Origin: a phage
Length of the DNA: 64,000 bases
Sequence record: PZ452581.1
Strand: one strand, 5' to 3'
Each line of letters begins with the position of its first letter. The first letter of the stretch is position 1. The notes under the pieces are model-generated. The model was not told the DNA's origin, did not search any database, and saw only the letters and a program-made list of their open reading frames with translations. Of the stretch, positions 6,680 through 10,651 are shown one piece after another. The position numbers and the translations under genes are program-made.

Positions 6680-6869
6680 AAGTTTTCCATGGTAAAGGCA
6701 GTTTAGTTTTCTTTACTGTTAGTTCAATATCAGGATTCTTTTCTCTTAATTTAAGGCATTCCTCCCAAGCTCTGATTTCACTAGTGAATACACAAAATTG
6801 CCCATTACTAGTACCAACTAAACCACTATTTACAATAACAATAGACCAAGTTTCATGATGCCACGCCAT
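6672..6869 (-). CDS. hypothetical protein (cd.x block)
   Basis: 65-aa ORF abutting pseT stop. Confidence 0.5.
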   Translation of the reverse strand: MAWHHETWSIVIVNSGLVGTSNGQFCVFTSEIRAWEECLKLREKNPDIELTVKKTKLPLPWKTYE

Positions 6870-7777
6870 TAAAAATCTCCCGAGTCAACTTGCCAGCATT
6901 CAACACCGATGCGGCGCCACATTTCAACTACTTGAGTTCGGTCATCAATAGCTAATTTCACATCAAAATGTGGTGCGATGTGTTTCCAGAAAATTTCTTC
7001 TTTAACTACATCATCTTTACGAGTATCGCCTTGTTCGCGTTGACATTGCATAACTAATGGAACGCCAGCAATGTCCTCAACCCATTTACGGGTCATACGA
7101 TAATATTTCGTTGGGTCTTCTTCGGTTCCACTTTCACGGCCTGAAACGACTACGATGTAATATCCTTGCTTATCGTACATCTTAGCTAGTTCAACAATCA
7201 TAGGATTGATAACATCAGTATCACATTTTTCAAGGTCATAAGGACCACGACCATTCATTTTGGCTAGTGTGCCATCAACATCAAAAATAACTGCTTTTGG
7301 TTTACCAGGAGTCCCTTTGTATACCGGAAGACCGAGATACTCTCGCATGCTTTTATACATTGAGCGTAAAACATCAATTGGTACTGCTTTAGTTCCACGC
7401 TTTGAGTTACGTTTAACCAATTCAGTCCAAGGAACATCAAACACTTTGTATTCAACTTTCCAGCCGTATTCTTTGGCAAAAGTTTCCCATGCCAGGCGAC
7501 GTTCAGGATTCAGGTTAGTATCTGAAATGATTACTCCCTTAACAGAATCGCCACCGTACAGAATATTTTTAGCTGTATCAAACTGCATACCAGATACGAT
7601 GCCTTCTTTCTTTTTGGTATACTTATACTCATCGCGTTCTTCATGTGCCATAATAGATTGGCGATAGTCATCACGATTGATATTATAAAATCCAGGATTT
7701 TTAGCAATAAATTCACGAGCCCAAGTACTCTTACCTGAACCAGGACATCCAACAGTCAAAATAATCTTTTTCATCAT
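6869..7777 (-). CDS. pseT: polynucleotide 5'-kinase/3'-phosphatase
   Basis: 302 aa; N-terminal P-loop GCPGSGKST (kinase) and C-terminal HAD motif VIFDVDGTL (phosphatase); sequence recognised as T4 Pnk. Confidence 0.95.
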
Positions 7778-8094
7778 TTAATTCCTAAGAAAACTTCAAG
7801 AATACGAATATTATGCTCACGCCGCCCTTTATATAATTCAGCTGTTGATTGATTCACCGATTTGCTCTGAACATTAGATGAAATAAATTTTATCATGTGA
7901 TTTTTAAGCTGATACATATCAAGCCCACGGGCTTTTGCTTCTTTTCGTAATGCTTTACCAGCGTCATCTAAAGCTTTCGCAGGGTCTTCATCATTTAATA
8001 CTACCCCACGGTCCAAATCCATATATACTGCACCATTACATGCATCAATGTAACGGTCTGAACATTCAATATAATGTTCTAACAGAGTTTTCAT
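7774..8094 (-). CDS. hypothetical protein (pseT.x block)
   Basis: 106-aa ORF, ATGA overlap with pseT. Confidence 0.55.
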
Positions 8095-8097
8095 TTA

Positions 8098-8328
8098 TTA
8101 TTTCTCAACCAATGATTGAATATAATCATGCAGGTCTTTAGATGCTTTACCCCACTTATTTTGGTATTCATTTTTAAGATTAGCCCGAGATTGAGCTAAT
8201 AAAACATCATTAGTTGGAGGTAAAGATTCTAATCGTTGAATCTGGCGTCCATAAATCATTGCAGCCATCTCGGATTCATAAATCAATCCTTTGAGATGTT
8301 CAAATTGATGCCATGAAATCATTTGCAT
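8098..8328 (-). CDS. hypothetical protein (pseT.x block)
   Basis: 76-aa ORF. Confidence 0.5.
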   Translation of the reverse strand: MQMISWHQFEHLKGLIYESEMAAMIYGRQIQRLESLPPTNDVLLAQSRANLKNEYQNKWGKASKDLHDYIQSLVEK

Positions 8329-8618
8329 TTATCCTCTTTTAACTCTTGGCGATAATAACATATCATAGTTTTCTGATCATGTACATATCGTTTTACATCA
8401 TTAAGCCAAATACGAAATTCCTGAGAATCTTCAAATGGCATACCGACCCAAGCTTTACCGTCAATAACTTTAACCTGCCAAGATAGTTTAGCTTCATCAT
8501 ATGACTTTATTTGCACAGGCCAATTAGGATGAACTGTTTCTTTCTTTACTTCTAGAGGCTTTGTCGAACAACCAACTAGAAGACCAATAGATAATATTAC
8601 TGCTGATAGTTTAATCAT
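8319..8618 (-). CDS. putative lipoprotein
   Basis: 99 aa; N-terminal signal peptide with lipobox LLVGCS. Confidence 0.55.
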   Translation of the reverse strand: MIKLSAVILSIGLLVGCSTKPLEVKKETVHPNWPVQIKSYDEAKLSWQVKVIDGKAWVGMPFEDSQEFRIWLNDVKRYVHDQKTMICYYRQELKEDKCK

Positions 8619-8968
8619 TTAGAAAGGTCCTGGATGTCTTCTGCGAACTTGTTGAAGGAGTTGTTGATTTGTTTTTCAACCAATCCTGGCTTATGAGCCA
8701 CCACATCCGCCTTCTTTGCGTCTTTGCGCAGTTTTTCATTTTCACGCTCAATAGCAGCAATTGCCTCACGATTTTTATTATTCATCGCATCAATATAATT
8801 ATACTGAATTCGCAAATTATTTAATGCTAAAGCGTTTTCATTGGCCGTTTTTGTAATTTCTACAACAGACGTTTCTAATCTTTCAATTTTATTTTTTAAA
8901 ATTAAAGAAGTTCCGCCTAATGCAATTACAATTAATAGCAAGCCTGCTGTCGTATTACTTAATTGCAT
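8615..8968 (-). CDS. putative membrane-anchored coiled-coil protein
   Basis: 117 aa; N-terminal hydrophobic segment AGLLLIVIALGGTSLIL. Confidence 0.5.
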   Translation of the reverse strand: MQLSNTTAGLLLIVIALGGTSLILKNKIERLETSVVEITKTANENALALNNLRIQYNYIDAMNNKNREAIAAIERENEKLRKDAKKADVVAHKPGLVEKQINNSFNKFAEDIQDLSK

Positions 8969-9465
8969 AAAGTTTTAATAACCTCTATAATATCGTCTTG
9001 AGAAAGACCGTTAATTAAAATATGATGTTCAGCCGGAGATTTAGAAATTTTAAAGCATGCCTCAACATCTTCTGCCATATCCGATGCACTACGATTTGGA
9101 TTACTAATTCCAAGACGATGCTTTCCAGTCAAAGGATTAACGATGATATAGCATTTGCAGCTATTGATATGAACATTAGGCTGAGTCTGATTAATGAATA
9201 CTTCGCACTCATACTTAGCGAGTTGATTTTCTAAAAAGACTTTCATCTCCTCAACCGCATCAGGAAGCATATCACGGGCTTGCTCAAGACGACGATTTCG
9301 ATATTCTTTAATGGTCGTTTTCCGCTTGACTTGCTTAGCTAAATCTTTCTTAAGATCGGTGATATATCCAACTCGACGATTTCCTTTGAATACAGAAATC
9401 CCATCTGTAGTATCACCGTATGCTTCAACGACCATTTCAGTAGTAATAAGCTGCAAATCCATCAT
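8959..9465 (-). CDS. alc: Alc-like transcription terminator of cytosine-containing DNA (assignment by size and synteny)
   Basis: 168 aa between pseT block and rnlA, as T4 alc (167 aa); early promoter motif upstream at 9487-9523. Confidence 0.6.
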   Translation of the reverse strand: MMDLQLITTEMVVEAYGDTTDGISVFKGNRRVGYITDLKKDLAKQVKRKTTIKEYRNRRLEQARDMLPDAVEEMKVFLENQLAKYECEVFINQTQPNVHINSCKCYIIVNPLTGKHRLGISNPNRSASDMAEDVEACFKISKSPAEHHILINGLSQDDIIEVIKTLCN

Positions 9466-9526
9466 AAAGTCCTCATGTTATGTCAGTAAGACTACTGTAA
9501 CACAACACGAGGGACTTGTAAACAGC

Positions 9527-10651
9527 TTAGTATCCTTCTGGGATAAATTTTTTATAATTTTTCAAAAAATTCTGTTCGATTTCACACATGACCTTTTCTT
9601 GACTATCGTACCCCTGGTATAGGCTCATAATGATACCGAACAGGTGATCCATTCCAGCGCCTTTAGCAACACCTTGCGCTTCCATCGCATAAGTCTTTCT
9701 ATCTTTGCCGCAATGCTTATTGTGACAGTCAAGAACTAAAAACAGAGCTCGGTCTAAGTACTTCAGATAAGTCGTCTCAAATGCTTCAATTTTTCTGTAT
9801 GAATATTCATCGTCAGCGTACATTGCTTTAAGATCATCTGATGCACCATCAATAATAGTCTTAAACAATTTTTCTGGATTATCTAATGAACTTTTTGTAC
9901 TATGAAGAGACACATACCAGTCAGACTTAATTTTAAAATGAGAACCATCTTTCATCACAGCAACATAGCCTTCGATGTTTTCTGCATTTTTAGCTTCTTC
10001 AGCCCATTTAGGGCTATCGATTTCGTATCGTTCAACTAGATATGGACGAAGAACAGCATCTTTATAAATGTCATCATATGAAATGTATTCGCCTGTTTCA
10101 TTTTCACGAATATTCAATAAAATGATTTTCATCTCTTGATAAGCAAGAACGATTCTATTCGTCGGAGCAACGAATTCAAAGTTAGCAGTAAATCCATCTT
10201 CGGCTAATTTTTTAAGTCTGTCACGCAACTGATGATGATTAATATTCATCAAAATTCCATTGGCCATTAAAGCCTGTTCAGATTTGATTGAACCCTTTGA
10301 TTTGAACAGAATTTCATCACCGTCTAAATAAGTTGATACCAAAGACCCATCTTCTTTTGTTAGAATGTAATCAACATCATTTAAATCGATATTCATCGTG
10401 AATGGATTTTCATTCAAGTTAAAAAACTTTTCCATAGGACGAGAAGCGATTCTTACCGGTTTTTCTCCATCCATTTCAAACATAATTCCACGACATTCTA
10501 ATGCGTCTGGAAGTAACCAATCAGAATAAGATGCGTAATTATATGAGAAAATTCTATAAGTTCTTCCAGATGCACTTACATCATCCGAGTAAAAAAACTT
10601 ACGCTGCGAATCCTTACACAGCTCCATTAAATTGTTAAAAAGTTCTTGCAT
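9527..10651 (-). CDS. rnlA: RNA ligase 1
   Basis: Internal ATG at 10651 gives 374 aa starting [21 protein letters not shown]; adenylation motif KEDG; recognised as T4 gp63. Track ORF extends to 10687. Confidence 0.9.

Follow-up and report, generated by a model that had tools for sequence, protein, structure and literature searches.

The T4-type genes pseT and rnlA and the peptide gene stp in a Tequatrovirus genome segment

The window, by which we mean the whole 64,000-nt stretch of phage DNA that was analysed, is by its sequence a segment of a Tequatrovirus (T4-like) genome, collinear with the part of T4 that begins at about 127.6 kb, crosses the map origin and ends at about 23.5 kb. Region 6000–11200 shared 97.5–98.4% DNA identity with the Tequatroviruses Shigella phage Sf25 and Escherichia phages JLBYU24, KAW1E185, teqdroes and ime09, which have the same gene content there, including a 106-aa ORF (ORF106) that T4 lacks, and whose differences are without substance. 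The window as a whole is a mosaic in which the nearest relative varies by segment (56600–58400, for example, is closest to KIT03, at 99.6%). The pseT–rnlA region was matched in 570 phage records, with at least 80% of it covered in 497, and in the best 25 of the 570 the annotation of its genes agrees with that given here (Table 1). No structured RNAs or tRNAs were found in the window using Rfam at gathering thresholds and ARAGORN.

Table 1. Features of the pseT–rnlA region and other host-takeover or anti-defence genes of the window. Coordinates of denA, alc, arn, ndd, denB, modA, modB and dmd are from tblastn, with the low ends moved by 3 nt to take in the stop codon.
Feature	Coordinates	Strand	Product or description	T4 identity
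pseT	6869–7774	−	Polynucleotide 5'-kinase/3'-phosphatase (Pnkp), 301 aa	95.7%
ORF106	7774–8094	−	106 aa, 'RB69ORF231c'-like, phrog_2364	No counterpart in T4
pseT.1	8098–8322	−	Conserved hypothetical, 74 aa, phrog_2347	100% over 74 aa (PseT.1)
pseT.2	8319–8618	−	Outer-membrane spanin, Rz1-like lipoprotein (LLVGC lipobox), lysis gene	99% (PseT.2, annotated Rz-like spanin)
pseT.3	8615–8968	−	Inner-membrane spanin, Rz-like, lysis gene	92.3% (PseT.3, annotated Rz-like spanin)
alc	8959–9465	−	Host transcription inhibitor on cytosine-containing DNA; Pfam PF17527 ALC, 2e-91	98.2%
Promoter-like site	9494–9522	−	TTTACA-17-TACAGT, with TG; in rnlA–alc gap	
rnlA (gene 63)	9527–10651	−	RNA ligase 1 (Rnl1), 374 aa	98.7%
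denA	10704–11138			99.3%
arn	33745–34023			97.8%
stp	37946–38026	−	26-aa peptide, type Ic restriction (EcoprrI) inhibitor and PrrC activator	100%
ndd	about 38026–38484			98.0%
denB	39784–40341			99.5%
modA	53265–53867			98.5%
modB	53864–54487			96.6%
dmd	60951–61133			100%

The PseT protein is identical to T4 PseT at 288 of 301 residues and matches PDB 1ltq, the solved structure of T4 Pnkp, along its entire length (E=1e-201). The pseT stop codon has its last base at 6869; at the other end, the mechanically called ORF is one codon longer, beginning with ATGATG at 7777, whereas the start homologous to that of T4 lies at 7774. Both expected domains were recognised by Pfam (HAD_PNKP, 5e-59, and AAA_33, 1e-22). 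The N-terminal P-loop kinase domain carries GCPGSGKS at residues 9–16, fitting GxxGxGKS, and the C-terminal phosphatase domain of the HAD type (DxDxT) carries DVDGT at 165–169. All 12 Pnkp catalytic residues that were checked are as in T4, namely K15, S16, D35, R38 and R126 in the kinase and D165, D167, R176, R213, D254, D277 and D278 in the phosphatase; the kinase residues, with Asp35, Arg38 and Arg126 as the acceptor site, are those of mutagenesis work by the Shuman laboratory (compare PMC2831316). Compared with T4, pseT has 32 synonymous and 13 non-synonymous codon differences, and the resulting 13 substitutions cluster at residues 193–218 of the phosphatase domain, away from the catalytic residues. 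Asp165 is the phosphatase nucleophile and is described as the covalent intermediate (PMC3592404). By sequence, the PseT of the window is thus a T4-type Pnkp, with predicted kinase, phosphatase and 2',3'-cyclic phosphodiesterase activities. Bacterial RNA-repair Pnkp enzymes, such as Clostridium thermocellum Pnkp/Hen1 and Capnocytophaga Pnkp1 (PDB 4xrp, E=6e-40 to PseT), share the end-healing kinase and phosphatase chemistry, but are distant homologues with different partners and domain arrangements.

The ligase is even closer to its T4 counterpart, with 369 of 374 residues identical (39 synonymous and 5 non-synonymous codon differences, hence five substitutions) and a match to PDB 2c5u, the solved structure of T4 Rnl1, at E=6e-253. 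The rnlA ATG has its A at position 10651, and a GAGG Shine-Dalgarno sequence lies 7 nt upstream. Lys99 of T4 Rnl1 is the adenylylated lysine of nucleotidyltransferase motif I (KxDG), here KEDG with K99, and all ten Rnl1 catalytic residues checked (R54, K75, F77, K99, G102, E159, E227, G228, K240 and K242) are kept, which covers motifs III, IV and V as well. In addition to RNA_lig_T4_1 (4.5e-25), Pfam recognised T4_Rnl1_C (1.7e-39) over residues 253–374, and since residues 218–374 are identical to T4, the Rnl1-specific all-helical C-terminal domain, which confers tRNA specificity, is retained. RnlA is thus, on the same grounds, a T4-type Rnl1 that is predicted to seal broken tRNA-Lys anticodon loops.

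The stp gene lies apart from these two, between ac (37786–37938) and ndd. Its DNA differs from that of T4 by three synonymous and no non-synonymous changes, so that all 26 residues of the peptide are the same, and it was assigned to Pfam PF08133 (E=2e-21) and phrog_6763. The N-terminal 18 residues of Stp have been reported to matter, and its primary role to be the inhibition of type Ic restriction (EcoprrI, EcoR124I), with the triggering of PrrC as a side effect (PMC3014915). The peptide is by its identity the anticodon nuclease activator Stp, for which restriction inhibition as well as PrrC activation are predicted.

The original prediction, made without database searches, had named PseT, RnlA and Stp at these coordinates and had proposed that a sequence alignment could prove the assignments wrong; the alignments above bear them out. 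It had also listed dmd, arn, alc, ndd, denA, denB, modA and modB as probable host-takeover or anti-defence genes, and all eight are present in the window at 96.6–100% T4 identity. The identities of the named genes to T4 are far beyond chance.

The mechanism that had been proposed, in which Stp sets PrrC free to cut tRNA-Lys and the break is mended by Pnkp and Rnl1, is the published one (PMC3014915, PMC1484252). In a host carrying the prr locus, Stp would bind the type Ic enzyme EcoprrI and block restriction, and this inhibition would free the associated PrrC anticodon nuclease. PrrC would then cleave tRNA-Lys on the 5' side of the wobble base and so produce 2',3'-cyclic phosphate and 5'-OH ends, after which PseT would remove the 3' phosphate and phosphorylate the 5' end, and RnlA would rejoin the anticodon loop, allowing translation and infection to go on. 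The biochemistry of the pathway and its link to PrrC are taken from the T4 literature. Compared with the T4 system acting against E. coli EcoprrI–PrrC, the three genes, the order and orientation in which they stand among the neighbouring genes, their domains and their catalytic residues are all the same here. We consider it highly probable (about 95%) that pseT, rnlA and stp are the T4 orthologues in a close Tequatrovirus and should work as they do in T4, and nothing in the sequence speaks against it; the orthology, the gene order and the integrity of the active sites are observed, while the same mode of operation in this phage and its hosts is inferred. Since prr+ strains are a minority among E. 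coli, the pathway would be idle in most infections.

A competing reading, to which we give somewhat less than an even chance, is that pseT and rnlA are kept mainly for tasks other than countering PrrC: RnlA as gp63 in tail-fibre attachment and PseT as a general healer of RNA ends, acting when RegB-cut mRNA decays and possibly also in repairing the damage done by other defences that cleave tRNA or RNA, with PrrC as a special case. The T4 annotation of rnlA, 'RNA ligase and tail fiber protein attachment catalyst' (gp63), speaks for this reading, as does the loss of secondary cleavages in RegB-processed mRNAs upon pseT deletion (PMC3014915). Moreover, in HIDEN-SEQ data insertions within T4 rnlA's N-terminal catalytic domain were not tolerated on E. 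coli K-12, which lacks prr, and the PseT orthologue of Bas37 was highlighted among the most depleted genes where uropathogenic isolates were compared with K-12 (10.1101/2025.11.20.689424). This reading is, however, compatible with a role against PrrC, and the tRNA-directed C-terminal domain of Rnl1 is kept here. It was also the prr phenotype that defined pseT, rnlA and stp in classical genetics. Because both enzymes have other documented roles, pseT and rnlA should not be regarded as pure counter-defence genes.

The original prediction had further described 6869–10651 as a tRNA-repair counter-defence set. The interval is not a dedicated module, since alc, two spanin genes, pseT.1 and ORF106 also lie inside. 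A single functional cassette, in which every gene of the interval serves one function, was rejected in view of the spanin genes pseT.2 and pseT.3, of alc and of the two ORFs without an assigned function; the repair pathway does not involve alc, the spanins, pseT.1 or ORF106. The promoter-like site in the rnlA–alc gap is a hit of a consensus scan, which alone is weak evidence, and in the promoter and terminator scan of 5300–11300 promoter-like sites were no commoner than in shuffled sequence (23 versus 26 expected). Only this site was retained, because in the related phage SA79RD the homologous gap bears the annotation 'similar to phage T4 early promoter', and it is probably a T4-type early promoter driving alc through pseT.

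Besides the substitutions in PseT and RnlA, the interval differs from T4 in a pseT.1 that is one residue shorter and in ORF106, an insertion that separates pseT.1 from pseT. The indel extends precisely from ATG to ATG, with a 7-nt ATGAAAA repeat at its flanks, and the stop codon of ORF106 overlaps an ATG of pseT (ATGATGA; the alternative ATG at 7777 forms the overlap ATGA). ORF106 was present in 704 phage records; it is identical (100%) to the Sf25 protein, and the ime09 annotation calls it a hypothetical protein. The AlphaFold model (pLDDT 88.4, 4 helices) predicts a confident four-helix bundle, and the family alignment holds 32 invariant columns. A Pfam search returned no match and PHROGs only phrog_2364, a family of unknown function; a word-indexed homologue search found T4-like phage proteins only, and among 1.84 billion representatives a profile search picked out seven, all of them weak or short matches. 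Foldseek detected nothing below E=2 in the PDB and only the protein's own family in BFVD, and a literature search on RB69ORF231c and pseT.1 yielded nothing relevant.

These properties bear on the view that the interval is one counter-defence cassette, with ORF106 and pseT.1 as tRNA-repair accessories or new anti-defence proteins and ORF106 translationally coupled to pseT, which we regard as very unlikely. In its favour are the overlap of stop and start codons, the predicted fold and family conservation of ORF106, and its position, directly upstream of pseT in all Tequatrovirus records inspected and one Tegunavirus, and one gene away in one Mosigvirus. T4-like genomes are syntenic throughout, however, so this adjacency counts for little, and the slot upstream of pseT varies, being empty in T4 and occupied by two ORFs in Mosigvirus and by other ORFs in Tegunavirus. 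The two-enzyme repair pathway was, moreover, defined in T4, which does without ORF106; the protein has no Pfam, PDB or fold relative beyond its own family, and the remaining intervening genes (spanins, Alc) have unrelated known functions. Also in favour is the precedent in the window of small ORFs that proved to be anti-defence genes (tifA, 61.4; adfA, 61.2; adfN, 30.3), all of them elsewhere. The suggestion that small ORFs adjacent to the known genes may be anti-defence genes has this precedent, but no evidence for it was found at the ORFs beside pseT and rnlA. Likewise, no feature was found linking the narrowly distributed ORF106 protein to tRNA repair or anti-defence, and we think it improbable that it is an anti-defence or host-takeover factor lost by T4, which might modulate or extend RNA repair, for instance where a different tRNA nuclease from PrrC is at work. 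A half-size AdfA paralogue, also lacking in T4, adjoins adfA.

That the assignments are wrong, or the gene copies decayed, is next to impossible: no supporting evidence was found, and the alignments refute it, since all three ORFs are full-length, share 96–100% identity with T4, keep their catalytic residues and differ mostly by synonymous changes.

The prediction of a T4-type PseT, RnlA and Stp is correct, and it is already known T4 biology. PrrC, Stp, Pnkp and Rnl1 are the founding example of a layered exchange of restriction, anti-restriction, abortive tRNA cleavage and tRNA repair; another phage copy of this counter-defence is unremarkable and carries little weight beyond correct annotation. 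Its practical use is a verified map of the positions of known anti-defence genes in this genome, together with a short list of accessory ORFs absent from T4, such as ORF106 and the half-size AdfA paralogue, for screening.

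Alignment to T4 upheld the assignments of pseT, rnlA and stp, which the original prediction had grouped as a tRNA-repair counter-defence set and placed at exact coordinates. PseT, the polynucleotide kinase-phosphatase Pnkp, shares 288 of 301 residues with its T4 counterpart, RnlA (RNA ligase 1, Rnl1, gene 63) shares 369 of 374, and the Stp peptide is identical over all 26 residues. PseT aligned over its full length with the crystal-structure sequence 1ltq (E=1e-201) and carried the Pfam domains AAA_33 and HAD_PNKP, while RnlA matched 2c5u (E=6e-253) and carried RNA_lig_T4_1 together with the Rnl1-specific C-terminal domain. 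Stp matched PF08133 (2e-21) as well as phrog_6763 ('activator of host PrrC lysyl-tRNA endonuclease'), and its gene is flanked by ac and ndd as in T4. The positions known from mutational work to be catalytic in Pnkp (K15, S16, D35, R38, R126, D165, D167, R176, R213, D254, D277 and D278) and in Rnl1 (R54, K75, F77, K99, G102, E159, E227, G228, K240 and K242) were all kept in the alignment to the T4 enzymes. Codons differing from T4 were synonymous versus non-synonymous in 32 versus 13 cases for pseT, 39 versus 5 for rnlA and 3 versus 0 for stp. The rnlA ATG is preceded by a GAGG ribosome-binding site at 7 nt spacing, and pseT has an extra in-frame ATG one codon upstream, at 7777. The covalent nucleophile of Pnkp is Asp165, according to PMC3592404.

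The mechanism proposed for the set agrees with established T4 biology. E. coli strains carrying prr restrict T4 pnk or rli mutants, and suppressors of this restriction map to stp; the PrrC anticodon nuclease is kept latent through its association with EcoprrI, a type Ic R-M enzyme, and Stp, by inhibiting restriction by EcoprrI, unmasks the nuclease (PMC3014915, PMC1484252). Activation also requires GTP hydrolysis, with dTTP as co-activator, and PrrC then cleaves tRNA-Lys 5' of the wobble base, a break whose ends are healed by Pnkp before Rnl1 seals it (PMC3014915, PMC1484252). What called for refinement was the wording: Stp is an anti-restriction peptide first, the triggering of PrrC being the host's counter-move, and both enzymes have further roles. 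Pnkp contributes to the decay of RegB-processed mRNA (PMC3014915), and Rnl1 is annotated in T4 as gp63, the tail-fibre attachment catalyst. In a transposon study, the N-terminal domain of T4 rnlA was intolerant of insertions on K-12, and the Bas37 PseT orthologue was highlighted among the genes showing the strongest depletion when uropathogenic isolates were compared with K-12 (10.1101/2025.11.20.689424). The phage rnlA is distinct from the host rnlA toxin, the target of Dmd.

Coordinates of the features discussed, with identity to T4 where compared
Feature	Position	Strand	Remarks
adfN (30.3)	744-1202		98%
gp30.8	2360-2728	-	38%
175-aa ORF	5611-6138	-	no T4 counterpart
pseT	6869-7774	-	
ORF106	7774-8094	-	106 aa
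pseT.1	8098-8322		
pseT.2	8319-8618		outer-membrane spanin, LLVGC lipobox
pseT.3	8615-8968		inner-membrane spanin
alc	8959-9465		
rnlA	9527-10651	-	
Small ORFs in hyperplastic gaps	16099-16446, 17047-17292, 17304-17636, 17950-18252, 39437-39802, 47404-47685, 50501-50761, 56961-57170, 57167-57370	-	no T4 counterpart
Distal tail fibre	28024-32622	+	not T4-type
stp	37946-38026	-	
rIIB/rIIA	40655-43782		99.4% and 98.3%
123-aa ORF	46203-46574	-	no T4 counterpart
ORF118	59354-59710	-	118 aa, no T4 counterpart
adfA (61.2)	59712-60338		94.7%
tifA (61.4)	60692-60949		97.6%

The interval 6869-10651 was ruled out as a dedicated module by the presence of alc, the spanins, pseT.1 and ORF106 inside it. From rnlA to pseT the order is alc, pseT.3, pseT.2, pseT.1 and ORF106, with close packing or overlap throughout, and the gap between rnlA and alc holds a promoter-like site, where a T4-type early promoter is annotated in a related record. 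ORF106 is the sole element of the interval without a T4 counterpart. Compared with T4, it forms a 320-nt cassette with exact ATG-to-ATG boundaries and a 7-nt ATGAAAA repeat at its flanks, the stop codon overlapping the earlier of the two pseT ATGs. The slot is variable, being empty in T4, occupied by ORF106 and a second ORF in Mosigvirus, and by ORF106 and more ORFs without T4 counterpart in Tegunavirus. The protein belongs to phrog_2364 (function unknown; annotated in ime09 as 'hypothetical protein, RB69ORF231c') and is present in 704 phage records, with 32 invariant columns in an alignment of 18 homologues. AlphaFold predicted a confident four-helix bundle (pLDDT 88.4, pTM 0.79), for which Foldseek returned no PDB match below E=2 and BFVD matches to its own family only; among 1.84 billion cluster representatives, searched with a profile, 7 proteins matched, none of them informative. 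Because the complete repair pathway operates in T4, which has no ORF106, the protein is unlikely to take part in tRNA repair, and it is very improbable that it is an anti-defence or takeover factor.

The further takeover and anti-defence genes predicted were all found, with identities to T4 of 99.3% (denA), 99.5% (denB), 98.2% (alc), 97.8% (arn), 98.0% (ndd), 98.5% (modA), 96.6% (modB) and 100% (dmd). That list lacked tifA, adfA, adfN and rIIB/rIIA. The first two encode an inhibitor of ToxN and an anti-DarT factor, and make up the so-called anti-TA island with dmd (PMC9391042); adfN counters DarTG1 (PMC11257639), and rIIA/rIIB counter RexAB (10.1101/2025.11.20.689424). The suggestion that small ORFs near takeover or anti-defence genes may have anti-defence functions has precedent inside the window, in tifA, adfA and adfN, but nothing was found in its favour for the ORFs adjoining pseT and rnlA.

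Directly downstream of adfA in this island lies ORF118, a member of phrog_4122 (function unknown; 333 phage records). Its Pfam match covers only the C-terminal half of AdfA (PF23813, positions 113-211 of 211; 34.7 bits, the cut-off being 27), and it is 34% identical to that half of the window AdfA, with the common ending SIDDQIFNAFMN-G. ORF118 may be a half-size AdfA paralogue. Judging from the weak matches that they share, to goF-like families and to phrog_622, 3710 and 24808, the 175-aa and 123-aa ORFs look like distant paralogues. The small ORFs in the hyperplastic gaps (frd, denB, motB, dexA, soc) fell, where searched against PHROGs or Pfam, into unknown-function families (DUF7247, DUF7422, phrog_1928, 3183, 3566, 4423, 2390, 3720 and 4967); the 67-aa ORF at the last position, searched against Pfam alone, had no match there.

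The window (G+C approximately 35%, the majority of genes on the minus strand) is collinear with a stretch of T4 (NC_000866) that spans the map origin, from approximately 127.6 kb to approximately 23.5 kb, with DNA identities of 92-97% over most aligned blocks and 75-86% in a few. When the 112 translated T4 genes of this span were used as tblastn queries, 102 had a counterpart, mostly at 92-100% protein identity. Dam, encoded in T4 between genes 56 and 61, had no tblastn match anywhere in the 64 kb; its gene is missing at 57888-58160, and gp56 shares only 70% identity with its T4 counterpart. At least 80% of 56600-58400 is covered by 170 phage records, and no methyltransferase lay under the match in the 8 best listed, headed by KIT03 (99.6%). 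None of the T4 introns and homing-endonuclease genes tested for the span was present (sites 11644-11647, 12320-12376, 15505-15506, 19991-20027, 44051-45871 and 56944-57373): nrdB and td are intronless, without I-TevIII and I-TevI, and mobE with nrdB.1, segG, segF, and mobA with 60.1 are missing. A single ORF of 606 aa is a fusion of genes 39 and 60; its residues 473-606 match residues 27-160 of T4 gp60 at 95.5% identity, so that the translational bypass of gene 60 is lacking. In the distal tail fibre, identity to T4 drops to 49% for gp37 (1260 aa, with a C-terminal Peptidase_S74 intramolecular chaperone domain), and gp38, a glycine-rich adhesin of 261 aa (Pfam GP38 and Gp38_N), does not match its T4 namesake. 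This implies a receptor specificity unlike that of T4. The gp30.8 allele is divergent, although it shares its Pfam family (PF06019) with T4 gp30.8, and lies between genes that are 97-100% identical to T4; it is a local mosaic replacement.

Stp was also found outside the T4-like phages. The Kagunavirus siphophage Escherichia phage K1ind3 encodes an unannotated 25-aa homologue downstream of its endolysin gene (GU196281.1, 40773-40850), with 23 of 25 residues the same and the N-terminal 18 identical. Weaker matches occur in further phages that are not T4-like, and from these findings the peptide appears to have been transferred between unrelated phage groups. In many T4-like records, stp is unannotated.

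A megablast search of 50,697 phage records with 6000-11200 matched 570, almost all Tequatroviruses of Escherichia, Shigella or Yersinia, led by Shigella phage Sf25 (98.4%) and Escherichia phage JLBYU24 (98.3%). The pseT, rnlA and stp genes are orthologues of those of T4, with intact active sites and in conserved context, and because the identities are this high, the pathway can safely be expected to operate in this phage as it does in T4, its biochemistry being taken over from the work on T4. The tRNA-repair/Stp set is already known, and represents a standard Tequatrovirus copy of the classic system.
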